Of a stretch of 64,000 nt of DNA, positions 4,572 to 21,270 are shown one piece after another; within the stretch, counting starts at the first letter, position 1, and the number at the start of each line of letters is the position of its first letter. The notes beneath the pieces are model-generated. The model had not been told where the DNA came from, searched no databases, and worked only from the letters and a program-made list of their open reading frames with translations. The stretch covers positions 800,001-864,000 of the forward strand of contig CAVYGB010000002.1 in assembly GCA_963767925.1 (NCBI GenBank), read 5' to 3'. Both the position numbers and the translations under genes were made by a program. Origin of the DNA: an uncultured delta proteobacterium (GTDB taxonomy: Bacteria; Myxococcota_A; Polyangia; Fen-1088).

Positions 4572-4600
4572 TTGACGGGAAGTAAGTGATCGCTTACTTA
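4572..4600 (+). promoter_or_regulatory. TetR promoter with overlapping palindromic operator
   Basis: TTGACG at 4572-4577; inverted repeat AAGTAAG-TGATCG-CTTACTT at 4580-4599, just upstream of the ATG at 4608. Confidence 0.7.
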
Positions 4601-4607
4601 CATACAT

Positions 4608-5402
4608 ATGGCCCCCGAGAGGCGGACCGCCGAGGAACGGCGGGAACAGATCCTCGCGGCGTCGCTCGAGCTGTTCGCGCGGCAGGGGCTCCATGGCGTC
4701 ACGACCCGCATGATCGCCGAGGCGGCGGGTATGTCGGAGGCGCTGCTGTACCGACATTTCCGCAGCAAGGACGAGCTGTACGCGGAGCTGCAGAGCTGGT
4801 GCCTGCGCGGCACCCTCGGCGCCGCCGAGAAGCTGATCCAGCTCCCGGTCAACACGGCGACCCTGGTGCTCGCCGTGTACTTCAGCGTCCATCAGATCCT
4901 CGGCGGACCCGATCGCAGCCAGTCCTTCTCCTACATCCAGCGGATCATGCTCAACAGCCTGATCGGCGACGGGAAGTTCGCGCGTGGCTTCTGCCAGGTG
5001 AACTTCGCCCGCTTCTTGCCGAAGCTGCGCGCCCTGCTCGACGCCGCCCACGCGGCCGGTGACATCGAGGGTCCCCGCTCCGCCCACCCCGACCTGGGGT
5101 TCTGGCTGGTTCACCACACCGCGGTCATGGCCAGCAACATCTACCTGCCCGACCCGCCGGTGATCGACCACGGCGTCGACCGGGCGGCCCTGGTCGTGGA
5201 GATAGCCCGCTTCGTCCTGCGCGGGCTGGGGCTCAAGGCCGCCGCCCTCGCCCGCCACTTCCACCCGCCCACCCTGGCCAGCGCCATCCAGCACGCCCTG
5301 GCCGCCGCCCCGCCCGACCCGCTGCCCCCCGCCACCCCCACCTCCCCGAAGAGTCCCCGGCCCGGAAGACCCCGATCAACAAGCAAAGGTAACCGCCGAT
5401 GA
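4608..5402 (+). CDS. TetR/AcrR family transcriptional regulator
   Basis: RREQILAASLELFARQG..TTRMIAEAAGMSEALLYRHFRSKDEL HTH. Confidence 0.93.
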   Translation: MAPERRTAEERREQILAASLELFARQGLHGVTTRMIAEAAGMSEALLYRHFRSKDELYAELQSWCLRGTLGAAEKLIQLPVNTATLVLAVYFSVHQILGGPDRSQSFSYIQRIMLNSLIGDGKFARGFCQVNFARFLPKLRALLDAAHAAGDIEGPRSAHPDLGFWLVHHTAVMASNIYLPDPPVIDHGVDRAALVVEIARFVLRGLGLKAAALARHFHPPTLASAIQHALAAAPPDPLPPATPTSPKSPRPGRPRSTSKGNRR

Positions 5403-6199
5403 GACGCACCATGCACCGAACCCCGCCCTTCGCCGCTGCCCTCGCCCTCCTGATCGGCCTGGCCGCCGGCCCCGCGACCGGCGCCGCCGATCCCGTCGCC
5501 GCCGGCCTCGAGATCGCCCGCAAGGCCGACGCCGCCAACCAGGGCTTCGTCGGGGAGAAGGGGACCATGACCCTCGAGCTCATCAACGCCCACGGCGAGG
5601 TGACGAAGCGAAAGATGAACATGGAGGTGCTCGAGGGGACCGACGACGGCGACAAGAGCCGCTCGGTCTTCGAGTGGCCCGCCGACGTCAAGGGCACCAA
5701 GCTGCTCACCTGGACCCACAAGAAGGGGGACGACGACCGCTGGCTGTACCTGCCCGCCGTCAAGCGCATCAAGCGCATCAGCTCGAGCAACAAGTCCGGG
5801 TCCTTCATGGGCAGCGAGTTCGCCTACGAGGACTTCTCCAGCCAGGAGCTGGAAAAATACACCTACAAGCTGCTCGACGAGCCCAAGCAGGGCGGCCGCG
5901 ACACCTGGCGCATGGAACGCATCCCGGTCGAGAAGGACAGCGGCTACGCCCGCCAGATCGTCTGGACGGACAAGGAGTACCTGAACCCCCTGCGCATCGA
6001 GTACTTCGACCGCAAGAACGAGCTGCTCAAGGTGGCGACCTTCGAGGGCTACAAGAAGTTCGGCAAGTTCTGGCGTTTCGGGATCATCCGCATGGACAAC
6101 CTGCAGACCAAGAAGAAGTCCGTCCTGACCTGGGAGAACCGGGAGCTGGGCAACAAGCCCCCCGCCGAGAACTTCGACAGCGGCCGCCTCGAGGACTGA
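5399..6199 (+). CDS. Outer membrane lipoprotein-sorting (LolA-like) protein
   Basis: Signal peptide; WLYLPAVKRIKRI and SFMGSEFAYED motifs. Confidence 0.88.
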   Translation: MRRTMHRTPPFAAALALLIGLAAGPATGAADPVAAGLEIARKADAANQGFVGEKGTMTLELINAHGEVTKRKMNMEVLEGTDDGDKSRSVFEWPADVKGTKLLTWTHKKGDDDRWLYLPAVKRIKRISSSNKSGSFMGSEFAYEDFSSQELEKYTYKLLDEPKQGGRDTWRMERIPVEKDSGYARQIVWTDKEYLNPLRIEYFDRKNELLKVATFEGYKKFGKFWRFGIIRMDNLQTKKKSVLTWENRELGNKPPAENFDSGRLED

Positions 6200-6201
6200 T
6201 C

Positions 6202-7521
6202 GTGCGCCGCCGCCGACCGTGCGCCGGGGCCGCCTTCGCGCTGGCCCTGGCCGCCACCCCCTCCCCCGCCGCCGCCGACTGGTCCAGCCGGGGCGAGCTG
6301 GCCCTCGAGGGACGCCAGTTCGACGACGACGAGCGCGAGGTGACGCCCGACCGGGGGCTGGCCCTGTTCGGCCGCCTCGAGCTGCGCCACAGCCACGGCC
6401 GCCTCGAGGAGAAGACCCGCTTTTACGGCCGCCTCGATCGCTACGACGAGCAGCGCTCGGTGCTGGTGTTCGAGGAGGCCTGGGCCCAGCTCGCCCTCGA
6501 GCGGGTGCGCCTGCGCGCGGGCGTCGACCTGGTCAACTGGACCGCCACCGAGGCCTTCCACCCCGCCGACGTGATCAACGCCCGCAACCTCGACAGCGAC
6601 CTCGAGAACTACGAGAAGGTGGGCGAGCCGATGGCCGCCCTGCAGGTGCGCCTGCACGAGAACACCTCCGTGCAGGTGATGTACCTGCCCCACCGCACGG
6701 CGCCGATCTTCTCCTCGCCCGGCTCACGCCTCAGCTTCGCCCCCGGGCTCGACCTGCGCGGCAGCCGGCGCATGTTCGACCGGGAGGGCCGCCTCAGCGG
6801 CTCGCGCTGGGGCCCCCAGGCGGCGATCGCCCTGCGCCAGGTGCTGGGCAACGCCGACCTCACCGTGCACGCGCTCGAGCACCTCGATCGCAGCCAGCCC
6901 CTGGTCCGCCTCGACCCCCAGACCTTCTCGCCGCTGCTGGTCTTCCAGACCGTGCGCCAGCTCGGCGGCACCTACCAGCAGGCGGTCGGTCCGGTGGTGC
7001 TGAAGCTGGAGGGCGCCTACCGCCGCTTCGTGGCTCCCGTCGATGCCTTGCCCGGCCTGCCGCTGAGCGCGGCCGGCGGCCTCCTCGCTGATCAGGAGGT
7101 GGGTCTGCCCCCCGACGATCGCGGCCAGCCCGACCACGGCCTGCTGGCGGTCGGCATGGAGTACGGCGTGCCCCACGAGGGCGGCAGCGAATCGACCTTC
7201 CTGCTCGAGGGGCAAATCCTGCTCGGCGTCGAGGATCCCGCCCTGCGCGCGGCCCTGACCATCTTCCAGCGCGACGTCCTGGTCGGCTACCGCTTCGCCC
7301 TCAACGACGAGTCGAGCAAGGAGCTGCTGGTGGGGGCGATCTTCGACACCGAACGTTCGGGCGAGAGCCTGGTGATGCTGAACTACCAGCAGCGCCTGGG
7401 CGAGACCTGGACGCTGCGGGCCGGCCTGCGCCTGTTCAACGCCAGGGCCAGCGCCCCCGGTCCCATGGCCACCCTGCGCACCTCCGATCACGTCCGCCTG
7501 GCCTTGACCCGTCACTTCTGA
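6202..7521 (+). CDS. Putative outer membrane beta-barrel of the MMPL export operon
   Basis: Signal peptide, amphipathic beta strands and C-terminal Phe; start GTG 6202 inferred. Confidence 0.7.
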   Translation: MRRRRPCAGAAFALALAATPSPAAADWSSRGELALEGRQFDDDEREVTPDRGLALFGRLELRHSHGRLEEKTRFYGRLDRYDEQRSVLVFEEAWAQLALERVRLRAGVDLVNWTATEAFHPADVINARNLDSDLENYEKVGEPMAALQVRLHENTSVQVMYLPHRTAPIFSSPGSRLSFAPGLDLRGSRRMFDREGRLSGSRWGPQAAIALRQVLGNADLTVHALEHLDRSQPLVRLDPQTFSPLLVFQTVRQLGGTYQQAVGPVVLKLEGAYRRFVAPVDALPGLPLSAAGGLLADQEVGLPPDDRGQPDHGLLAVGMEYGVPHEGGSESTFLLEGQILLGVEDPALRAALTIFQRDVLVGYRFALNDESSKELLVGAIFDTERSGESLVMLNYQQRLGETWTLRAGLRLFNARASAPGPMATLRTSDHVRLALTRHF

Positions 7522-7566
7522 GGTCGATCCCCGTCCCGCTCAACCTCTCACGCCCGAGGCCGATCG

Positions 7567-9897
7567 ATGTCCACCTCCGCGCCCTTGCAGGTCACCGCCG
7601 TCAACCGCCGCTTCGTGGGGTTCATCGCCAGCAAGCCCTGGGTCGCCATCGCCCTCGGGCTGGCCCTCGTCGCGGGGCTGGCGGGGGGCCTGCGCCACCT
7701 GCACGCCGACTTTACCCACAAGGGCTTCTTCTGGGCCGACGATCCCAAGCTGCTGCGCCTCGACGCCTTCGAGCGGCGCTTCGGCAACGACGACGTGGTG
7801 CTGCTGGCGGTGGAGAGCCCCTCGGGCATCTTCGACCTCGAGTCGGCGACCCTCATCCAGGAGATGACCCGCAAGATGTGGCAGGTCCCGGAGGTCATCC
7901 GGGTCGACTCGATCGCCAACTTCAACTGGGTGCACGGCCAGGGCGACGATATCCTCGTCGAGCCCCTGCTGCCCGCGACGCTGACGCCCGAGATCCTGGC
8001 CCAGCGCAAGCAAGTGGCGCTCAGCCACGAGTCGCTGCCCAACTACCTCGTCAGCCGCGACGGCAAGGTCACCGTGATCATGGGGCGGATCAAGCCCGGC
8101 CTGGAGGCGCCGCCCGACGCCCCCCGCATCACCCGGGCCGTCCGCCAGATCGCCCGCGAGAGCGAGGGGGGTGACCACATCATCCACGTCTCGGGCGGGC
8201 CACCGATGACCTTCGCCTTCGAGGAGATCACGACCGCCGACATCCAGCGCCTGGTGCCGATGGCCCTGGGGATCGCCGCCCTCTTCCTCACGTTGCTGCT
8301 GCGCTCGCTGGCCGGGGTGTTGCTGCCCTTCGTGGCGGTGTTCGGAGCCGTGCTGGCCTCGTTCGGGTTCGCGGGCTGGGGTGGGCTGGTGCAGACCGCC
8401 ATGAGCACCGCCGTGCCGAGCATCCTCATCGCGGTCGGCATCGCCGACACCGTGCACATCCTGGTGACCTTCCTGGAGGAGCTGCGGCGCGGGCGCCCGC
8501 GCAAGGAGGCGGCCCACCACGCCCTCACGAAGAACCTGCTCGCCACCTTCCTGACCTGCCTGACCACCGCCATCGGCTTTTTCAGCTTCATGACCGCCAA
8601 CCTCAAGCCGGTCGGCATCCTCGGCATGATGGCCGGGATCGGCGCGCTGGTGGCCTGGGTGGTGGCCCAGCTCGTGGTGGGCGGGCTGCTGTTCGTGTTG
8701 CCGATCAAGGCCAAGCCGCTGCCCCCCGAGCGCTTCGAGGCCACCGACCGGCGGGCCACCCGCCTGGTGGACTTCATCGCCCGCCACCGGGTCGGCGTCA
8801 TCGTGACGACGGTGGCGCTGTCGGCGATCTCGCTGGCCCTGGCCCTCGGCATCGACGTCAACTCCGACCCGGTGAAATATTTCCGCAAGGACATCCCCGT
8901 GCGGGCGGCCAACGAGTTCATGGAGCGCACCATGGGCAACGCCCGCAGCTTCGAGCTCGTCGTGTCGGCCGGTGAGGAGGACGGGATCAAGGACCCGGTC
9001 TTCCTCGGCAAGGTCGACACCTTCCAGAGCTGGCTCGAGAAGCAGCCCCACATCACCCGCGCCGTCTCCATCCTCGACGTCCTCAAGAGCACCCACAAAT
9101 CGCTCCACGGCGACAGGCCGGAGGCTTACCGGCTGGCCGGCGACAAGCAGACCATCGCCCAGGAGCTGCTGCTGTACACGATGGGCTTGCCCCAGGGGAT
9201 GGACGTCAACGACCGCATCACGGTCAAGAACGACGCCCTCCGCATCACCGTCCTCAACACCATCCTCACCTCACGCGAGGCGGTGGCCACCATCGACCGC
9301 ATCGTGGCCCAGGGCAAGACGCTGGGGCTCGCCGTCGAGGCGACCGGAAAATACTACCTCTACCAGCAGACCAACGAATACGTGGTGCAGTCGTTCCTCA
9401 CCTCGCTGTGGAGCGCGACCCTGCTGATCGGGATCATCATGATGGTGTTCCTGCGTTCGGTGCGGCTGGGGTTGATCTCGATGTTCCCCAACATCGTGCC
9501 CCTGTTCGCGGGGGGCGCCCTGCTGCGCCTGCTGGGGCAGCCGCTCGACATGGGGACGGTGCTGGTGGCGAGCGTCTGCCTCGGCATCTCCATCGACGAC
9601 ACCAGCCACGTGCTGGCCAACTTCGCCTATTACCGGCGGCAGGGCGTGCCGCCCAACCAGGCCATGCGCCAGGTGCTGGCCGTGACCGGCCCGTCGCTGC
9701 TGTCGACGAACGGCATCCTGATCGCGTCGTTCGCCACCTTCGCCACCGCCACCTTCGTGCCGAACATCTACTTCGGCATCTTGACCGCCTTCATCCTCAC
9801 CATGGCGCTGGTGGCGGACGTGTTTTTCACCCCTGCCCTCCTGCTCGAAGACCCCCGCAAGGAAGCGGCCGCCCGGAGCGAGCGCGCCGTGGCCTGA
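7567..9897 (+). CDS. MMPL/RND family transporter
   Basis: Two sets of TM helices with AVGIADTVH and LGISIDDTSH motifs; 776 aa. Confidence 0.93.
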   Translation: MSTSAPLQVTAVNRRFVGFIASKPWVAIALGLALVAGLAGGLRHLHADFTHKGFFWADDPKLLRLDAFERRFGNDDVVLLAVESPSGIFDLESATLIQEMTRKMWQVPEVIRVDSIANFNWVHGQGDDILVEPLLPATLTPEILAQRKQVALSHESLPNYLVSRDGKVTVIMGRIKPGLEAPPDAPRITRAVRQIARESEGGDHIIHVSGGPPMTFAFEEITTADIQRLVPMALGIAALFLTLLLRSLAGVLLPFVAVFGAVLASFGFAGWGGLVQTAMSTAVPSILIAVGIADTVHILVTFLEELRRGRPRKEAAHHALTKNLLATFLTCLTTAIGFFSFMTANLKPVGILGMMAGIGALVAWVVAQLVVGGLLFVLPIKAKPLPPERFEATDRRATRLVDFIARHRVGVIVTTVALSAISLALALGIDVNSDPVKYFRKDIPVRAANEFMERTMGNARSFELVVSAGEEDGIKDPVFLGKVDTFQSWLEKQPHITRAVSILDVLKSTHKSLHGDRPEAYRLAGDKQTIAQELLLYTMGLPQGMDVNDRITVKNDALRITVLNTILTSREAVATIDRIVAQGKTLGLAVEATGKYYLYQQTNEYVVQSFLTSLWSATLLIGIIMMVFLRSVRLGLISMFPNIVPLFAGGALLRLLGQPLDMGTVLVASVCLGISIDDTSHVLANFAYYRRQGVPPNQAMRQVLAVTGPSLLSTNGILIASFATFATATFVPNIYFGILTAFILTMALVADVFFTPALLLEDPRKEAAARSERAVA

Positions 9898-12564: not shown

Positions 12565-13779
12565 TCACCGGCAGCGGTTGGTGGCGGGGATGTAAAAGCC
12601 GGTGGGGGAGGCTTCGTTGGCGGCCTGGATGTGGTCGTAGGCGCAGCGCCCGGTGGCGGCGCGGTACTGGCAGCGGAAGCGGACCACGCGGTCGCCGCAA
12701 GCGGCCACCCGGTCGGTGCAGCTATAGGTGAAAAAGAGGGTGAAGCCGGAGGGGTTGTTGCAGGCCCCGGGCGAGAAGATGTCGCACATGTTCCGGAAGG
12801 TCATCACCGAGTCGCAGGAACCCTGGCCGGGAAAGAAGTAGGTGGAGCCGTCGAACTCCGGCGTCTCGCGACCGTTGCAGTCCCAGTCGAAGCTGCCGTT
12901 GGCCGCCGGGCGATCACGCAGCTCGAGGACCGGGCTGCCGGCAGCGGGGCGGCACTCGGCGGCGCCGGGGCCGCTGCAAGCCACCTTCCCCGTGCTCGCG
13001 CAGGCGCCGACGCCGCCCTTGCAATCGGCCCCCAGGGGAACCGCGTTGTTCGCGCCGTCCCTCCAGGTGAACCCCTCGTCGACCTGGCCGTCGCAGCTAT
13101 CGTCCAGCCCGTTGCACGTCTCCATGGCGGGCGAGACGTTGGGGCGGCAAGCCAGCGATCCGCCAGCGCACACCCGGGTCCCCTCCGCACAGATCCCGGG
13201 CCGACCGCTGCCGCAAGCCGCGCCGCCACCCGGGTTGCCCTCGTCGGTGGCGCCATCGCAGTTGTTGTCCTTGCCGTCGCAGACCTCGGCCCCGGGCCCC
13301 GCCGCCCCCAGGCACCGCCCGCGCACACCCTCCCGACACTCCCGGACACCGAGCCGACAGCCCCCTCGCCCCGCCGTCCGGTCATCGAGGCCATCGATAG
13401 CCCGCCCCTCCGGCGTCTCCGCGCAAGGCGGAGGACTCGCCGAATCGCACGCCGGCGGCGGCGGTGGAGGTGGCGGCGGGGGTGGAAGTGGCGCGGAATC
13501 CGGGTCGATGGTCGCGTCCATCGGGCCAGCGTCGAGCGCAGCGGGGACGCCCGGCCCAGTCGGAGCGTCCGGATCGGCAACCGCGTCACCCGGCGACCCA
13601 TTCGCATCCAGCGAGGTGAGAGGCGGAGCCGAGGGGCCATCGGGAACTTCGACCGGGCCCCTGCCGGTCTCCCGCAGCCCGCTGTCCCGGGTCTCGTCCG
13701 GCGGAGCAGTCTCCGAGCGCGGACTCGCGCAGGCCCCCAGTGCGATCAGCAGCCCCGCCAAGACCCTGTGCTTTTCCAT
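12565..13779 (-). CDS. Cys-rich lipoprotein with repeated putative metal-binding motifs
   Basis: Lipobox LGAC; two EVCDGKDNNCDGATDE / ETCNGLDDSCDGQVDE repeats. Confidence 0.8.
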   Translation of the reverse strand: MEKHRVLAGLLIALGACASPRSETAPPDETRDSGLRETGRGPVEVPDGPSAPPLTSLDANGSPGDAVADPDAPTGPGVPAALDAGPMDATIDPDSAPLPPPPPPPPPPPACDSASPPPCAETPEGRAIDGLDDRTAGRGGCRLGVRECREGVRGRCLGAAGPGAEVCDGKDNNCDGATDEGNPGGGAACGSGRPGICAEGTRVCAGGSLACRPNVSPAMETCNGLDDSCDGQVDEGFTWRDGANNAVPLGADCKGGVGACASTGKVACSGPGAAECRPAAGSPVLELRDRPAANGSFDWDCNGRETPEFDGSTYFFPGQGSCDSVMTFRNMCDIFSPGACNNPSGFTLFFTYSCTDRVAACGDRVVRFRCQYRAATGRCAYDHIQAANEASPTGFYIPATNRCR

Positions 13780-13929
13780 CGTACAGCCCCTCGGCTCGGC
13801 ACGGCGCGAGCCCACCCGCAGGGTAACACGGCAGTTGCCACGTCGGCCCCCCCCTCACCCGTTCCCTGTACCTGTCCCCTCTCCCCACGCCCGCAGACGG
13901 CCGCAGGGAGAAGGCAAACATGCAGCGGA

Positions 13930-14600
13930 CTGCCTGCCTCTGCCCTGCCTCCTGCCCCTGCCCCCTGCCTCTCCCTCTGTCTGCCTCTGCCTCCGCCTCC
14001 GCCTCCGCCGCCTCCCTCTGCCTCCGCCGCCTCCCTCTGCCTCCGCCGCCTCCCTCTGCCTCCGCCGCCTCCCTCTGCCTCCGCCGCCTCCCTCCGCCTC
14101 CGCCGCCTCCCTCCGCCTCCGCCGCCTCCCTCCGCCTCCGCCGCCTCCCTCCGCCTCCGCCGCCTCCCTCCGCCTCCGCCGCCTCCCTCCGCCTCCGCCG
14201 CCTCCCTCCGCCTCCGCCGCCTCCCTCCGCCTCCGCCGCCTCCCTCCGCCTCCGCCGCCTCCCTCCGCCTCCGCCGCCTCCCTCCTGCCTCCGCCGCCTC
14301 CCTCCTGCCTCCGCCGCCTCCCTCCTGCCTCCGCCGCCTCCCTCCTGCCTCCGCCGCCTCCCTCCTGCCTCCGCCGCCTCCCTCCTGCCTCCGCCGCCTC
14401 CCTCCTGCCTCCGCCGCCTCCCTCCGCCTCCCTCCGCCTCCCTCCGCCTCCGCCGCCTCCCTCTGCCTCCGCCGCCTCCCTCTGCCTCCGCCGCCTCCCT
14501 CCTGTCTCCGCCGCCTCCCTCCTGCCTCCGCCACCTCCCCGCCTCCCTCCTGCCTCCGCCGCCTCCCTCCTGCCTCTGCCTCCGCCTCGCCTCTGCCTCT
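13930..14600. repeat. Nearly A-free pyrimidine-rich tandem repeat made of 19/20-bp units
   Basis: Blocks of CCTCCGCCGCCTCCCTCTG (~4), CCTCCGCCGCCTCCCTCCG (~10) and 20-bp CCTCCGCCGCCTCCCTCCTG (~7), with CTCTGC-type edges. Confidence 0.95.
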
Positions 14601-14810
14601 GAAAACGCGAAGCTGAGTAGCAGTTGGGGCGGTGGGCATGTGGGCAAACGCGTCTGCGCGTCTGCGCGTCCGCTCTGCGCGTTTGTCCAAGGGGTGTGGG
14701 CAGTCTGCTGTCCACACCCCGGCATGTCCACGGCCCACCCCGCACCCCAGCGCCCCCCCATCCTCCCGTCCGGCGCCCGCCTTCACCCGAAGGCTGCGCC
14801 CGACCATCTG
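14591..14810. repeat. Left arm of the long inverted repeat flanking the RAYT gene
   Basis: GCGAAGCTGAGTAGCAG..GGGCAAACGCGTCTGCGCG..TTTGTCCAAGGG..GGCATGTCCACGGCCCACCCC; reverse complement at 15836-16033. Confidence 0.9.
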
Positions 14811-14878
14811 CCCGTGAGGCTCTCCCCCCAATTCACCACCGCATCGACGGAGGAGGGCGGACCATGAAACGATCCTAC

Positions 14879-14907
14879 TTGAAACACCAACGCGAACGAT
14901 CTAGTAT
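14879..14907 (+). promoter_or_regulatory. Sigma70-type promoter of the RAYT gene
   Basis: TTGAAA (14879-14884), 17-bp spacer, TAGTAT (14902-14907), in an AT-rich patch. Confidence 0.65.
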
Positions 14908-14919
14908 TGCCTCATTCAA

Positions 14920-15597
14920 ATGAAGAGTCCCCAACGTCGTGCTCAACTCGCCTTGCCCCGGACGTCCGGGTGGGGTGGACGTCGGAAGGGGGCCGGCCGG
15001 CCTCCGATTCCCGGGCGGCGACGGCCGGCGCCGCATCGGGTGCGGGCGCCCCACAAGGGCGCCCACCCGTTGCACGTGACCTTGCGGGCCAGGTCGGGGT
15101 TGATCTCGCTGAGGAGCAAGCGAGTCTTCCAGGTGTTGCGGGATTGCTTTCGCGCCTCGAGCTCGGCGGCCTTCCGGGTTGTGCAGTTCTCGGTGCAGGC
15201 CGATCACGTGCACCTGCTGGTAGAGGCGGACGACAAGGCGACACTATCCTCCGGAGCCCGAGGGCTGGTGATCCGGAGCGCGCTGGCCATCAACCGGGCC
15301 TGCCAGCGCAGCGGACGAATCTGGGGGGACCGGTATCACGCGCGCGAGCTGACGACACCACGGGAGGTACGCACCGCACTCGTGTACGTACTCATGAACC
15401 ACAAGAAGCACGGCCTGCGCGACCGCGGGCACATCGACCCCTGCTCCTCGGCCCCCTGGTTCGACGGCTTCCGCGTCCACGTCGTGCCTCCGACCGACCC
15501 CCCGGTCACCTGCATGCCCCGCACCTGGCTCGCCGCCGTGGGCTGGCGACGCCGCGGCCTGATCGACCCCACCGAGTCCCCCAAGACCATTCAGTGA
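14920..15597 (+). mobile_element. REP-associated tyrosine transposase (RAYT; HUH/Y1, IS200-like superfamily)
   Basis: PLHVTLR, HUH motif DHVHLLVE, DRYHAR and catalytic Tyr in YVLMNHKKHG. Confidence 0.88.
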
Positions 15598-15756
15598 ACG
15601 CGCCCGGCCTCGCCGCTGGAGGCGGGCTCTACACGGGGGAAGCGGGCGGCCCTCGGGTGGGAACAGGCGCCGGCGGAGATGGTCGGCGTGGCGTGGGCGC
15701 GCGGCGGGCGCGGAGCGGGGGGGCGGCGCGAGATGGTCGGGGCAGTGTCGGCGCGC

Positions 15757-15880
15757 GGCGGGCGCCGGACGAGGGCTGTGCGAGATGGTGGTGGGCGCAG
15801 CGTCGACGGGCGGCGGGCGCCGGACGAGGGCTGTGCGAGATGGTGGTGGGCGCAGCGTCGACGGGCGGCGGGCGCCGGAC
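15757..15880. repeat. 55-bp tandem repeat (2 copies plus a partial copy; degenerate copies from ~15670)
   Basis: GGCGGGCGCCGGACGAGGGCTGTGCGAGATGGTGGTGGGCGCAGCGTCGACGGGC at 15757 and 15812. Confidence 0.9.
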
Positions 15881-16033
15881 GGGGAAAGGGGCGGCGCTCG
15901 GGTGGGGGTGGGCCGTGGACATGCCGGGCTATGGACAGCGGACTGCCCACAGCCCTTGGACAAACGCGCAGACGCGTTTGCCCACATACCCACAGCCCCA
16001 GCTGCTACTCAGCTTCGCTTTTCAGAGGCAGAG
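15836..16033. repeat. Right arm of the long inverted repeat flanking the RAYT gene
   Basis: Reverse complement of 14591-14810 with scattered substitutions and indels. Confidence 0.9.
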
Positions 16034-16170
16034 GCAGAGGCAGAGGCAGAGACAGAGGCAGAGGCAGAGGCAGAGGCAGAGGCAGAGGCAGAGGCAGAGG
16101 CAGAGGCAGAGGCAGAGGCAGAGGCAGAGGGCAGAGGCAGAGGCAGAGGCAGAGACAGAGGCAGAGGGCA
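16024..16170. repeat. (GAGGCA)n microsatellite, ~24 units
   Basis: Directly visible hexamer run. Confidence 0.97.
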
Positions 16171-16327
16171 GACAGTGGCAGTGGTGGGACGGGGCGGGGG
16201 CGGAAGGGAGGTGGGCGGGAGTCCGGGCGGCTGATCAGGGTGAGGTGGGGCCGACTTGGCGACCGCCCTCACCCGTTCCCTCGCCCCACGGCCGCAGACG
16301 GCCACGGGGCGAGGGCAAACGGGCAGC

Positions 16328-16790
16328 GGGGGGACTGACCGAAACGGCTTGCCGCTCGCGGCGGTCGGGACGAACGGCTTAATCACCCGGTCTGGTGGCG
16401 GGGGGACTGACCGAAACGGCTTGCCGCTCGCGGTGGCAGAGACGAACGGCTTCATCACCCGGTCTGGTGGCGGGGGGACTGACCGAAACGGCTTGCCGCT
16501 CGCGGCGGCAGAGACGAACGGCTTCATCACCCGGTCTGGTGGCGGGGGGACTGACCGAAACGGCTTGCCGCTCGTGGCGGCAGAGACGAACGGCTTCATC
16601 ACCCGGTCTGGTGGCGGGGGACTGACCGAAACGGCTTGCCGCTCGCGGTGGCAGAGACGAACGGCTTCATCACCCGGTCTGGTGGCGGGGGGACTGACCG
16701 AAACGGCTTGCCGCTCGTGGCGGCAGAGACGAACGGCTTCATCACCCGGTCTGGTGGCGGGGGGACTGGCCGAAACGGCTTGCGGCTCGA
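16328..16790. repeat. 72-bp tandem array, 6 full copies plus a partial copy
   Basis: GGGGGGACTGACCGAAACGGCTTGCCGCTCGCGGTGGCAGAGACGAACGGCTTCATCACCCGGTCTGGTGGC at ~16328, 16400, 16472, 16544, 16616, 16687 and 16759. Confidence 0.95.
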
Positions 16791-16797
16791 GAGGGGG

Positions 16798-17670
16798 TTA
16801 TTCGGGTGCGAGCATGGATTTGGTGTGGGCGATGACGGCTTGGTTGCCGGTGCGGAGGCCCCATTGGGCGCCGAGGGCGGGGAAGGAGGCCCAGCGTTCG
16901 GCGGCGTGGTGTGGGAGGCCGGGCCAGGTGCGGCCTCCGGCGCGTTCGAACAAGGCGATCAGGCGGGCCAGGGACTCGGGGCCGAAGCAGCCGTGGAACA
17001 TGGCCAGGTCGATCGACGGGTCGGTCACCTGGGCTTCGGTCCAGTCGAGGATGCCGGTGACGGCGCCCTCTCCGTCGAGCAGCATGTGGCCGGGGTGCAG
17101 GTCGCCGTGGACCAGGGCCAGGTGGGGCGGCCAGCCCTCCTCGCTGTCGAGCCAGCGGTGCCAGCGCGCCCACAGGGCGTCCGTTGGCTGCAGCACCTCC
17201 CGGGTCTCCTCCATGGCCTTGCGCAGGGTCGCCCGCGATTCGGCCAGGTCGCGCACCGGCACGCCGGCGTTGCGGACGGCGTCGACCGGTACCGCCTGCA
17301 GGGCGGCGAGAGACTCTGCCATCGAGGCCAGGAAGCGCTCGGGCGGGGCCTTCTCGTTCATGTTCCAGATCGGCCCCTCTGCCCCGATGGTGACCGCCGG
17401 GGTGCCCGCCAGCCGCGGGTAGGCGATCAGATCGAGGGCGTGCACCCGCCAGTCGGGGACCGCCACCGGCATGCGCGGCTGGAGCAATCGCAGCACGCGC
17501 GCCTCGACCCGGGCCGACTCCACCACCTCCGGCCGCCGCGGGGTCCGCAGCACCCAGGCCTGGCCCGCCTCGTCGCGGGCGTGGACGACCCGGAAGTCGA
17601 GGCCGGTGCCGTCCACCTCCGGCGCGGCCGCCCCCACCTCGAGCCCGTGGCGTCGGGCCAGGGCGAGCAG
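16798..17670 (-). CDS. mph: Macrolide 2'-phosphotransferase (Mph family) domain, probably the C-terminal part of an HflX fusion
   Basis: LLALARRHGL, GLDFRVVHA, WVLRTPRR, LVHGDLHPGH and GILDWTEA motifs. Confidence 0.85.
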   Translation of the reverse strand: MLALARRHGLEVGAAAPEVDGTGLDFRVVHARDEAGQAWVLRTPRRPEVVESARVEARVLRLLQPRMPVAVPDWRVHALDLIAYPRLAGTPAVTIGAEGPIWNMNEKAPPERFLASMAESLAALQAVPVDAVRNAGVPVRDLAESRATLRKAMEETREVLQPTDALWARWHRWLDSEEGWPPHLALVHGDLHPGHMLLDGEGAVTGILDWTEAQVTDPSIDLAMFHGCFGPESLARLIALFERAGGRTWPGLPHHAAERWASFPALGAQWGLRTGNQAVIAHTKSMLAPE

Positions 17671-19144
17671 AATCCGCCGCCGTCTCGGTGGGCGGCGCCG
17701 TGGCCAGCACCCGCCGCCAGCGCTGCAGGGTCTCGGGGAAGGCGCGCACCCGGAGCTGGGCGCCCGCTTCGTCGTAGGTCTCGTGCAGCACCCGGGCGCT
17801 GCTCCGCACCTCTCCCAGCAGCCGCCCCTGCGCCGGCGGCACGGTCAGCACGTCGTCGACCATGCGCGTGTCGAAGAAGGCGACGATGCGCGCGCGCAGC
17901 CGCCCGGCGTCCTCGGGGGCCAGCGCGCTGAGGAAGAAGCCCTCCGGCAGCTCGCGGGCCAGCGCCTCCCGCCCGGCGGCGTCGACCCGGTCCACTTTGT
18001 TGAACAGGACCAGGTACGGCACCGCCGCCGCCCCCACCGACCCCAGCGTCTCGCGCACCACCTGGAGCTGCTCGCGCCAGTGCTTGTCGGAGGCGTCGAC
18101 GACGTAGAGGAGCAGGTCGGCCTCCTGCGCCTCCTGCAAGGTCGAGTGGAAGGAGGCCACCACCTCGTGCGGCAGGCTCTGGATGAACCCGACCGTGTCC
18201 GAGACCAGGATGCGCGGGGCGGTGGTGGGGGCCAGCGCCCGCACCGTCGTCCCCAGGGTCACGAACAGCTCGTCCTGCACCTCGACCTCGCTGCCGGTGA
18301 GCGCCCGCAGCAGCGACGACTTGCCGGCGTTGGTGTAGCCGACGAGGGCCACCTGGGGCGCCTCGCCCCGCCGCTCGCGCTGGCTGGCCTCCAGCGTGCG
18401 TAGCCCCTCGAGCTCCCGGCTGAGGGCCGCCACCCGCCCCCGGATCTCCTGCTTGCGCAGCTCGACGTTGGTGTGGCCCCGCTCGCCGCGCCCGCCGCCG
18501 CCGCCCTCCCGGGCGGCCCGGTCCTCGTCCTCGCGCACGCGCGGCGCCTCGTAGCGCAGGCGCGCCAGCTCGACCTCGAGCCGGGCGGTCCGGGTGCGGG
18601 CCCGCGAAGAGAATACGCGCAGGATGATGTCGGTCCGGTCCGCCACCGGCGCGTCCAGGGTCTGCTGGAGCTGGTGGAGCTGGCCGGGCCGCAGCGGGCC
18701 ATCGATCACCACCAGCGGCGGCGGGTTGTCGGGCCCGCGCCGCAGGTCCTGCAGCTGGGTCGCCAGCTCTTCGAGCTGGCCGCTGCCGATCACGCCCGCG
18801 CCACGCGGGGGGCGCTTGACCACCCGCGTGTCGGCCACGCGCAGGCCCAGGCCCCGCACCAGCCGGGTCAGCTCGAGCAACGAGCCGTCGGATCCCCGCC
18901 ACCCCACCAGCACCGCGTCCGCCGGGCGGGCCGGGTCGAGCGCCTGCCTAGCGCGGGCGTCATCGGGAGACGGAGGCAAAGACGGAGAAGGAGGCAAAGA
19001 CGGAGAAGGAGGCAAAGACGGAGAAGGAGGCAAAGACGGAGAAGGAGGCAAAGACGGAGAAGGAGGCAAAGACGGAGAAGGAGGCAAAGACGAAGCGGAC
19101 GAGAAGGCACGGGCAGGATGGCCGGAAAGTGGACGGGTCGGCAT
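17671..19144 (-). CDS. hflX: GTPase HflX (resistance-type HflXr-like); no stop codon at the domain end
   Basis: IGSGQLEE, DRTDIILRVF, GYTNAGKS, DTVG and NKVD motifs; AAGGAG SD before ATG 19144. Confidence 0.88.
18968..19095. repeat. 18-bp in-frame tandem repeat (~7x) encoding SPSLPP in the HflX N-terminus
   Basis: GGAGGCAAAGACGGAGAA repeated. Confidence 0.95.
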
Positions 19145-19383
19145 GGAAAGAGCTCCTTCGCTCGCGCGGGCGCAAGCGGGCGGGAAAAAGGCACGAGATC
19201 CTCGGCGGCACGCGGCGAATGAAACAGCCGCGCGGCGGGGCAATAGCCGGGCGCGAAAGAACCAGATACCTCCGCGCTCAGCAGTCTGCGCGGCCCGTCA
19301 GTGAGAGCGGGCCGGCACGAGCGGGGTGTCAGAGCCCTTCACAGGTTGCGAAGGCGGGCTCGACACTGGCGGGGCGGCGCTGT

Positions 19384-19410
19384 TCAGCGCAGCCGGAGGT
19401 AAGCGCGCAT
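19384..19410 (-). CDS. Leader peptide MRAYLRLR (putative macrolide-arrest uORF)
   Basis: ATG CGC GCT TAC CTC CGG CTG CGC TGA, 240 nt upstream of hflX; RLR (+X+) motif; complementary segment at 19267-19284. Confidence 0.75.
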   Translation of the reverse strand: MRAYLRLR

Positions 19411-19625
19411 AGTGGGCAAAACGTGACACCGATCGGTCGGTCGCGCAAGCCCGTTGTGGAAAGAGCCCGGCGCCGGGGCCCGGCTCTGCGGGCGCGCAAT
19501 CCGGCGACACCCGACGTGTCTTCCGGCCGCGACGCGGGATTGAACCCACACCGTCAGGTAGTAACCTGCATGTGGATGGCGGCGATGAACGACTCTGTCA
19601 GGTCACCCGCGCGGAAGGAGGCGCC

Positions 19626-19907
19626 ATGAGCGTGTTTCCGCACCGATGCCCCGCTTGCGGCTCACCCGCTTACATGGGGTTCAAGGACGTCGATTGCAGC
19701 AACCCGCATTGCCCCCACGCGGGGCCGACGGCGCAGGCGCGGCGGAAGAAGCCGCGCACCAGCAGCTTCACCTGCTGGAGCGCGGATCGCGGCGGCCCGC
19801 CCTGCACCGGCGTGGTGGTGGTCACCGACGGCAAGGGCACCTGCCCCCGCTGCGGCAGCCACTACGCCACCGGCCGCTCGCCCGGCAGCACCTCCTCGCG
19901 ACCCTGA
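19626..19907 (+). CDS. Small Cys-rich zinc-ribbon protein
   Basis: GAAGGAG SD; CPACG, CSNPHC and CPRCG motifs. Confidence 0.65.
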   Translation: MSVFPHRCPACGSPAYMGFKDVDCSNPHCPHAGPTAQARRKKPRTSSFTCWSADRGGPPCTGVVVVTDGKGTCPRCGSHYATGRSPGSTSSRP

Positions 19908-19977
19908 CCGCCGCGCGGGCGGGTCCCGCGTGCGCCCGGTAGAACGCCCCCGCGACGGGCAGAGGTTCCCCGGGATC

Positions 19978-20190
19978 CGACACGTGCACGTCTTTCGAGC
20001 ACGAGCACGAGCACGTCTTTCGTGCACGTGCATCCGTCAGACGTGAACGGAAGACGTGCTCGTGATCCGTCAGACGTGAACGCCACACCTGCTCGTGCTC
20101 GCGCTCGAAAGACGTGCAGGAATCCGTCAGACGTACACGACGCACGTGCTCGTGCTGGTGCTCGTGCACGAAAACACGTGCACGCGACCT
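19978..20190. repeat. Intergenic quasi-palindromic CACGTG/GAGCAC repeat element
   Basis: GAGCACGAGCAC versus GTGCTCGTGCT arms; three internal ATCCGTCAGACGT copies. Confidence 0.8.
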
Positions 20191-20454
20191 GCCCGCGCGC
20201 GGCCGGTCCCCTGCACCCAGTAGAACGTTCTCGCGGCCTACCCGCACGGCCGGTCCCACTCCCACCCGCCCAGCACCCCGCCGCAGGGGAGGGTTTCGCG
20301 GGCCCCGACGGAGACGCACCGGGGCCTACGATCAGCCACGCGCGCGTACCTGCGCCCACGGCAGGCGTGGCTCCGACCGCGAGGCGCAACGCGCGCCTGG
20401 CGCCGACTGCGTAATTGCCGCAAGATGAAAGGGGCACGGAAGTTGCGGAGGGGC

Positions 20455-21270
20455 ATGAACACCAGGTACGCGTGGAACGTCGGGCGGATGGCTTCTCTGC
20501 TGGCCCTGGCGCCGTTGATCGCCCTGGCGAGCGGCTGTGCCGAACGGCACGCCGGCAAGCGGGGGACGGGCGCCTCGGCGCGCATCGCCAAGAAGGCGCC
20601 CCAGGCGCTCGGCCGGCTCCCGTCGCGCGCGCCCGAGGCGTTGATGGACGTGCGCCTCACCGATCTCTCGGGTGAGTCGGTCACCATGACCGAGGTGCGC
20701 GGCCAGGTCACCGTCATCGCGATGTGGGCCACCTGGTGCAAGCCCTGCTTGCTCGAGCTGCCGATGCTCGAGCGGGTCAAGCGCCGCTACGCGAACGACC
20801 CGCGCATCTCCGTCGTCGCGGTCAGCATCGACGAGGTGAGCAACGCGGCCGATCTCGCCGAGGTGCAGGCCACCGTCAAGCGCATGGGCCTCACCATGCC
20901 GGTCTACCTCGACCAGACCGGCAAGCTGGCCCGCCACCTCATGGGCGCCGTCCGCTCGGTTCCGCTGCTCGCCATCCTCGATCCCGAGCTGCGCATGTTG
21001 CGCGAGCGGGGCTTCGACACCTCGGTCGACGAGCGGACCTACGTCAGCGCCAAGAGCGCGCTCATCGAGCAGGCCCGCCGGGGCGAGCTGCCGGCGGGGG
21101 AGCCGCCGGCCCCGGGCGACGCGGAGACGGGAGCGGTCGTCACGGCGTTGCGGGCCAACCTGAAGCGGGCTTACCCGGAGCTGAGCGATGATCGGATCGA
21201 GGAGCTGCTCAGCGATCTGGAAGAGCGCATGGAATACGCGAAGCTGCGCCGCCGCGCGCGCGGGCAATAG
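20455..21270 (+). CDS. TlpA/ResA-family thiol-disulfide oxidoreductase lipoprotein
   Basis: WATWCKPCLLELP; lipobox ASGC; start codon uncertain. Confidence 0.88.
   Translation: MNTRYAWNVGRMASLLALAPLIALASGCAERHAGKRGTGASARIAKKAPQALGRLPSRAPEALMDVRLTDLSGESVTMTEVRGQVTVIAMWATWCKPCLLELPMLERVKRRYANDPRISVVAVSIDEVSNAADLAEVQATVKRMGLTMPVYLDQTGKLARHLMGAVRSVPLLAILDPELRMLRERGFDTSVDERTYVSAKSALIEQARRGELPAGEPPAPGDAETGAVVTALRANLKRAYPELSDDRIEELLSDLEERMEYAKLRRRARGQ

Follow-up and report, generated by a model that had tools for sequence, protein, structure and literature searches.

Does the minus strand of a myxobacterial genome, at a site where the frame of an HflX-type GTPase runs without a stop into the region of a macrolide kinase-like frame, encode one protein or two, and where does the single base that sets the two frames out of register come from? 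We address these questions for positions 16,798 to 19,144 of a 64,000-nucleotide (nt) stretch of an uncultured delta proteobacterium (Myxococcota_A; Polyangia; Fen-1088; GenBank assembly GCA_963767925.1, contig CAVYGB010000002.1, positions 800,001 to 864,000); this whole stretch, with a G+C content of about 72%, is referred to here as the window. The first-pass annotation of the window had proposed a single gene of about 780 codons for HflX fused to a macrolide phosphotransferase (Mph), split by one extra base. The analysis described below supports this proposal: the locus appears to be a single gene whose bifunctional product, about 781 amino acids (aa) long, consists of an HflX-type GTPase and an Mph-like kinase (we put the probability at roughly 0.8).

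An apparent single gene distributed over two reading frames

The open reading frame (ORF) that contains HflX extends on the minus strand from TTG 19243 to 16742 (833 aa). We place the start of the gene at ATG 19144, which is preceded, at a distance of 8 nt, by the Shine-Dalgarno-like sequence GAAGGAG (19153-19159, minus strand, read off the sequence); the N-termini of related proteins are similar (MPTR.. compared with MPAR.. in the intact fused relative P0003), consistent with a start in the region of ATG 19144. From this codon, the HflX module (17672-19144, minus strand) continues for 491 codons in frame to GAT 17674-17672 and comprises the N-terminal, middle, GTPase and C-terminal domains followed by a proline-rich linker that ends in RWRRVLATAPPTETAAD. 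As claimed in the first-pass annotation, there is no stop at the end of the HflX domain, the frame being open to 16742. The out-of-frame continuation across the kinase (16742-17671, minus strand) adds about 310 Arg/Pro/Gly-rich codons and remains open because of the G+C content of 72%; when the 800-aa read-through in the HflX frame was compared with Pfam, only HflX and GTPase families were obtained, and none in the tail.

The letters around the break are exactly those given in the first-pass annotation. The minus strand reads GCG GCG GAT (17674-17672), T (17671), CTG (17670-17668), CTC GCC CTG, so that at 17671-17672, directly after GGCGGCGGA, two T are present where the family needs one (GAT T CTG), which amounts to a +1 move of the frame. 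The Mph-like module (macrolide 2'-phosphotransferase-like, APH fold; 16798-17670, minus strand) consists of 290 codons counted from CTG 17670, followed by the stop TAA 16800-16798. The nearest upstream stop in its frame is at 18259-18261, and the first ATG, GTG or TTG after that stop is GTG 17637. This codon lies 11 codons inside the conserved first helix of the kinase, LLALARRHGLEV, which begins at CTG 17670; the helix thus lies upstream of the usual start codons, as had been noticed previously.

Alignment with P0003 assigns residues 8-435 of this protein to 17669-18967 and residues 435-735 to 16807-17670. The junction consensus of the relatives, ...RW(R/K)..LP..P.IET(A/V)A(D/E)-(L/V)(L/V/I)-.-.-A-..-HGL..., corresponds in the window to ...PPTETAAD, continued in the next frame by LLALARRHGL, and because the relatives' reading through the junction aligns there, the break can be located at the surplus T. 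In the matched relatives, ET (linker) and HG (helix) stand 10 residues apart; the same spacing is obtained in the window once one base is dropped, so the defect is a surplus of one base rather than a loss of two. The repaired gene accordingly comprises 491 + 290 = 781 codons from ATG 19144.

A conserved family of HflX-kinase fusions in Myxococcota

The HflX-kinase fusion is real and conserved in Myxococcota. All 41 longer relatives of the Mph half contain both PF01926 and PF01636; 39 of these are full-length proteins of 717-759 aa with the full HflX domain set, and the other two (525 and 546 aa) are shorter at the N-terminus. The named sources are Chondromyces apiculatus, Sandaracinus amylolyticus, Bradymonadaceae and Lujinxingia vulgaris, and the sole annotation of these proteins is "GTPase HflX". 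The genomic loci of four relatives were read, and each of the four is a single ORF (728, 746, 744 and 819 aa) with all four domains, although these loci are not independent because three of them come from one genus. The relatives are thus not invariably encoded as separate genes, the finding that the first-pass annotation had named as contradicting a fusion; stand-alone forms exist as well.

The distribution of the kinase half was assessed in two sets of genomes. The 40 nearest genomes lack a close homologue (best E-value 8.3e-13, 32% identity). Across 401 evenly sampled genomes of the phylum, the source genome included, a match at E <= 1e-40 was detected in 17 genomes. Of the 16 genomes other than the source, eight carry open frames of 733-839 aa, all from family f29, and eight carry stand-alone frames of 297-348 aa; two of the stand-alone Mph-like genes, which we read individually, begin with MLEDILDAARRHGL and MTRVPTLNELLAEARAHGL and have no HflX upstream.

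The nearest relatives of the HflX half are a mixture of fused and stand-alone proteins. The HflX tree was constructed from 129 rows, namely the 41 fused proteins, the window protein, 85 stand-alone proteins and, as the outgroup, the two other HflX paralogues of the source genome (P0016, P0023 and P0002 were left out). The window protein groups with P0003, which is fused, and with P0044, a stand-alone protein of 444 aa. As a separate observation, interruptions are present in three of the four closest members, namely P0044, P0165 and the window protein.

The fused HflX is an extra paralogue wherever this was checked. In the source genome, three HflX proteins score above the TIGR03156 cut-off (420, 395 and 305 bits), the fused one being the lowest. 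In the genomes of family f29, two HflX proteins are found in each of five genomes (about 448 and about 330-344 bits), and in four of these the lower-scoring one is fused.

Conservation of the two modules and predicted structure

The HflX module is recognized by TIGR03156 with 304.3 bits (cut-off 216.75) and by the Pfam families PF13167, PF16360 and PF01926 (GTP-bdg_N, GTP-bdg_M and MMR_HSR1), and HflX chains from the Protein Data Bank align to it up to residue 473-483. Among the solved HflX structures, the highest sequence scores belong to chains of the Mycobacterium smegmatis type (203-204 bits), followed by 8a57 (190) and Escherichia coli 5ady (178). In the alignment of 42 fused proteins, positions conserved at 95% or more on the HflX side include LVGYTNAGKSS, DTVGF and the loop of the second N-terminal domain (NTD2), GGGGRG.RG, as well as the G1, G3 and G4 (NK.D) motifs; the G1/P-loop GYTNAGKS is located at 18317-18340 (minus strand). 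The HflX half of the window matches 81 of the 83 columns at this conservation level, no worse than the intact members. The N-terminal tail contains a tandem repeat (18 bp x 7.1, 99% matches; 18966-19092, minus strand) that encodes (SLPPSP)7, a repeat not found in any aligned relative.

The NTD2 loop, the part of HflX that reaches into the peptidyl-transferase centre, reads GGGGGRG.RGH(T/S)N in the fused clade and GGIG.(R/K)G.GE(T/S) in the two other paralogues of the source genome. The altered form, GGGG(G)RG.RGH(S/T)N (approximately 18480-18560 in the window), is also present in close stand-alone relatives, for example the Archangium protein P0076.

The Mph half matches the APH family PF01636 with an E-value of 7.5e-36 and the Mph(A) chain 5igh with 9.7e-67, the latter over practically the entire length of both (residues 1-288 against 12-298 of 301); chains of MphH, Mph(B) and Mph(E) are matched as well, and the family assignments of both halves lie well outside what chance would give. 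The catalytic loop HGDLHPGH (17086-17109, minus strand) aligns with HGDLYVGH of 5igh, and the DWTE motif (from 17046 downward, minus strand) with DWSE of the same chain. The kinase motifs HGD.HPGH and DW.E...DP..D are conserved at 95% or more in the 42 fused proteins, and the window matches 47 of the 49 kinase columns that reach this level, again no worse than the intact members. Judging from these sequence comparisons, both modules look active, and neither half shows signs of decay.

P0003 was modelled with AlphaFold2 from 45 aligned sequences; the model reached a mean pLDDT (predicted local distance difference test score) of 87.7 and a pTM (predicted template-modelling score) of 0.83, with low confidence only at residues 1-16 and in the NTD2 loop (150-162). 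The linker and the first helix of the kinase fall in blocks of pLDDT 84-93, and the model suggests a compact two-module protein with a short, ordered linker rather than beads on a string. In Foldseek searches, the N-terminal 435-440 columns or so of this model are best matched by the HflXr chains 8uu9 and 8a57 (E about 1e-29; template-modelling (TM) score by target 0.74-0.75), with the proviso that neither Foldseek nor phmmer ranks discriminate HflXr from other HflX. The last 300 columns or so retrieve the Mph chains 5uxc, 5igh and 7w19 (TM score by target 0.83-0.88), and among the Foldseek matches listed, at most 446 of the 736 columns are covered by any one chain.

Origin of the surplus base

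To place the break in the context of the source genome (9.34 Mb in 13 contigs, with a marker completeness of 84%), we scanned the assembly for similar interruptions. A codon log-odds table derived from 1,574 long ORFs was used to select the best-scoring segment in each ORF of at least 60 codons, and pairs of segments were retained if they were on the same strand, in different frames and abutting within 60 nt, with the upstream frame open for more than 90 nt past the switch and the downstream frame devoid of a start within 15 nt. Among 8,430 segments genome-wide, 284 such pairs were identified, evenly spread over the contigs: 237 of the extra-base class, to which the HflX/Mph break belongs, and 47 of the missing-base class. 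The scan recovered the HflX/Mph break, which is the sole break that it found in the window. The six top-scoring pairs are, in all six cases, complementary halves of one protein family, namely a TonB-dependent receptor, two AcrB-type pumps, a CheB/CheR-PAS-kinase protein, the beta subunit of RNA polymerase and phosphoenolpyruvate (PEP) carboxylase; for example, one of the AcrB-type pumps is split between profile positions 320-641 and 644-1020, and PEP carboxylase between 1-405 and 407-919.

Breaks were also encountered in genes that the organism could hardly do without. The only rpoB of the genome (G000:C8:2030930-2034994, G000 being the source genome) is in three pieces (profile positions 3-311, 309-700 and 703-1238), of which the first and the third are in the same frame, and the only secA (G000:C10:199570-202238) is broken at 373-376. 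A second gyrA/parC-like gene (G000:C10:1570245-1572398) is in four pieces, and genome-wide family searches found rpoC, one gyrA and two ileS genes whole. Three or more breaks thus fall within some 18 kb of coding sequence from essential genes. Given that real frameshifts could not persist in such genes, mutations cannot account for these breaks, and at such a rate an error in a gene of 2.3 kb is many times likelier than a fresh lesion. We therefore consider it probable that the surplus T is an indel error of the assembly and that the gene is intact in the organism. Compared with control sites, the break sites show no homopolymer enrichment, and enrichments of 4-mers are at most 2-fold; the errors are therefore not of the classical homopolymer type. 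The frame breaks, which call for polishing of the assembly, may also account for the low marker completeness. A further feature of this assembly is a single frame on the minus strand (G000:C2:2092386-2094419) that joins the C-terminal part of a phosphofructokinase (profile positions 91-232) to the N-terminal 405 positions of PEP carboxylase and that reflects either the loss of a stop through an assembly fault or an unusual order of genes.

Several observations weigh against an assembly error in an otherwise intact fusion gene. The scan is heuristic, was devised for this analysis and lacks a control genome; among 105 cleanly placed breaks, 67% skip G, whereas the surplus base here is T; and a break inside the 12-codon linker of a 781-codon gene has a chance of only about 1.5% if errors are spread uniformly. 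The run search listed two soil-metagenome runs (contigs, 5% of the sampled words in each) and no RNA run; at 85% likeness, the two runs contained short pieces of relatives, none of those listed spanning 17671, and no insertions or deletions were reported. In the HflX tree, fused and stand-alone proteins are interleaved, with 13 changes under parsimony and at least eight forced by the starred branches, so that either fusion and fission have occurred repeatedly or some of the 'stand-alone' calls are broken fusions. P0044, the sister of P0003 and the closest stand-alone HflX, ends in ...PPVETAADT*, that is, at the same junction, and P0165 is fused at the junction and goes out of frame inside the kinase; real fissions or lesions thus do occur in this clade. 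When metagenomes were scanned for P0044 DNA, only 16 loci with 32-41% identity were recovered.

The likeliest alternative is a real, recent frameshift, by which the locus would be a fresh pseudogene or a fission under way that yields an HflX with a junk tail of about 310 aa and a startless kinase that is never made. Such an event would be in keeping with the fissions in the family, with the position of the break in the linker, where the HflX module is spared, and with the accessory character of a gene that has no close homologue in the 40 nearest genomes. It is nevertheless an unlikely explanation, given that essential single-copy genes are broken as well, at a rate that favours error many-fold, and that neither half is decaying; moreover, the break leaves HflX without a stop and the kinase without a start and so does not constitute a workable fission. 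Far less probable still is an arrangement of two genes in which the kinase would begin at ATT 17673 or CTG 17670 by translational coupling with HflX. Both codons are suitably positioned, and the stand-alone Mph-like genes of the phylum that begin with MLEDILDAARRHGL and MTRVPTLNELLAEARAHGL do so 5-9 residues before the helix, but the HflX frame stays open for 930 nt, no Shine-Dalgarno-like sequence is present ahead of 17673, and the closest relatives are in-frame fusions.

The least credible explanation is that the fusion is made from the sequence as written, by programmed +1 ribosomal frameshifting or transcriptional slippage at GAU-U-CUG. The break does fall precisely at the domain junction, where a second family member, P0044, also ends, and the next codon in the 0 frame, UCU, would be expected to be rare at 72% G+C. 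However, the site is not conserved, since 42 relatives read through it in frame; tRNA-Asp on GAU is unable to re-pair on AUU; the site has neither a 0-frame stop, the frame being open for 930 nt, nor a strong Shine-Dalgarno-like stimulator upstream; the default product would carry 310 junk codons; and hundreds of similar breaks across the genome, including those in rpoB, point to a trivial cause. Of the three causes envisaged in the first-pass annotation, a sequencing or assembly error is thus favoured, a recent mutation retains a small share of the probability, and +1 recoding is spoken against. More generally, findings of a 'pseudogene', 'split gene' or 'recoding' in the source genome should be discounted until checked against the reads, because the assembly splits even rpoB and secA.

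A possible coupling of ribosome rescue and drug inactivation

The fusion joins, apparently, two known kinds of resistance factor in one protein. Natural fusions of two resistance modules exist, as exemplified by AAC(6')-Ie/APH(2'')-Ia, in which both modules modify drugs; in the protein described here, by contrast, the ribosome would be the target of one module and the drug that of the other. The HflX part has the same four-part architecture and the same G motifs as Listeria monocytogenes HflXr and mycobacterial HflX, which split ribosomes and confer macrolide-lincosamide resistance, and differs from these in the C-terminal kinase, which is absent from every solved HflX. According to PMC9638945, NTD1 of HflXr/HflX on the 50S subunit is located on H69-H71, the helices of NTD2 extend along H89/H91 with the loop in the peptidyl-transferase centre, and the C-terminal domain contacts uL11 at the stalk base. 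The same source describes HflXr as conferring macrolide and lincosamide resistance and as a second paralogue beside canonical HflX, which the fused HflX resembles in being additional to the canonical one, with an NTD2 loop that is typically 2 residues longer. The fusions differ from HflXr in that their NTD2 loop is not longer and departs in sequence instead, in that they belong to another phylum, and in that their role in resistance is putative.

The kinase part resembles Mph(A), Mph(B), MphH and Mph(E) in its full-length match, in the superposition of the modelled fold and in the HGDL..GH and DW(T/S)E motifs; unlike these enzymes, the window kinase scores below the family cut-offs, has no independent start codon and is joined to HflX. 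Another parallel is offered by msr(E)-mph(E) and mef(C)-mph(G), cassettes that couple target-level protection (or efflux) genetically to a macrolide kinase, the two activities presumably working in concert (PMC5776109). Their partners are separate genes that reside on mobile elements in Gammaproteobacteria, protection being provided by an ABC-F ATPase. In functional metagenomics, environmental HflX genes are reported to have raised erythromycin minimal inhibitory concentrations to 64-128 mg/L (PMC5776109). The fusion, in contrast to the cassettes, is one polypeptide with an HflX GTPase and is chromosomal in Myxococcota.

A possible coupling between rescue and phosphorylation is suggested by the fusion itself, by the fact that both active sites are conserved and by the analogous msr(E)-mph(E) cassettes; the first-pass annotation had likewise suggested that the fusion could bring the kinase to drug set free when ribosomes split. 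In this scheme, the N-terminal domains of the HflX module would bind antibiotic-stalled ribosomes or 50S subunits, with the C-terminal domain at the uL11 stalk base, and would split or remodel them, and the tethered kinase would phosphorylate the macrolide-type drug, using GTP as known Mph enzymes do, so that the drug could not rebind; target rescue and drug inactivation would thus be united in one polypeptide. Being attached to the C-terminal domain by only about 10 residues, the kinase would be expected to occupy a peripheral position close to the stalk base, with the loop active at the drug site. The solved Mph structures among the Foldseek matches listed carry GDP, GTP, GMP or guanosine, and hence both modules would use guanine nucleotides. 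We tentatively propose, at somewhat less than even odds, that the Myxococcota fusions are single-polypeptide resistance machines in which an HflX with a re-designed loop frees the drug and a rigidly attached, GTP-dependent kinase inactivates it.

Three results speak against this scheme. The Mph half falls below the cut-off of every curated Mph family (A, B, C, E/G, F, L and M): in comparisons with the NCBIfam Mph models, it attains at most 237 bits where the cut-offs are 500-650 (Mph(C), 236.9 against 550, being the best, followed by Mph(A), 220.6 against 550), and it therefore lies outside all named Mph families. There is no HflXr-type longer NTD2 loop, the loops of the three paralogues of the source genome being equal in length in the alignment. 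Finally, neither the window nor the surroundings of the four fused relatives contain an antibiotic gene cluster or a partner resistance gene. The substrate of the kinase could also be a compound other than a classical macrolide.

Genomic neighbourhood

An Rfam scan of positions 13000-21000 yielded only a sub-threshold miRNA match, and a scan of 16600-19700 for promoters and terminators found nothing; no hflXr-like leader or attenuator was detected in these two ranges. Downstream of the gene, the sequence is rich in tandem repeats, the closest of which (72 bp x 6.5, 16326-16789) begins 9 bases past the kinase stop; the others are 6 bp x 24.7 (16023-16172), 55 bp x 2.7 (15734-15881) and 19 bp x 34 (13932-14586). 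A gene for an IS200-like Y1 transposase (14920-15597, plus strand) adjoins the repeats, which are possibly REP-like (repetitive extragenic palindromic) elements with their transposase. Farther away, on the plus strand (4599-9894), genes for a TetR-family regulator, a LolA-like protein, a protein of 441 aa that matches no Pfam family, and a transporter of the MMPL/RND type stand in one row, which looks like an export operon unrelated to the fusion gene.

Implications

The frameshift at this locus is ordinary and probably artefactual, and the family to which the interrupted gene belongs is conserved and apparently undescribed: a full-text literature search, with thin coverage of subscription journals and hence short of proof, found no description of an HflX-kinase fusion. 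The fusion also flags a putative determinant of the resistance type, one that would escape resistome annotation or be recognized there only in half. It adds an independent line of genomic evidence for the involvement of HflX paralogues in responses to macrolide-type antibiotics and points to a direct coupling of ribosome rescue with drug inactivation, a logic that is shared with the msr(E)-mph(E) cassettes. The idea of coupling is testable with intact members from harmless myxobacteria that can be cultivated. If it is true, the fusion would be a 'Rosetta stone' that identifies HflX-mediated rescue and drug modification as one pathway, beyond the Firmicutes and Actinobacteria in which HflXr has been studied.

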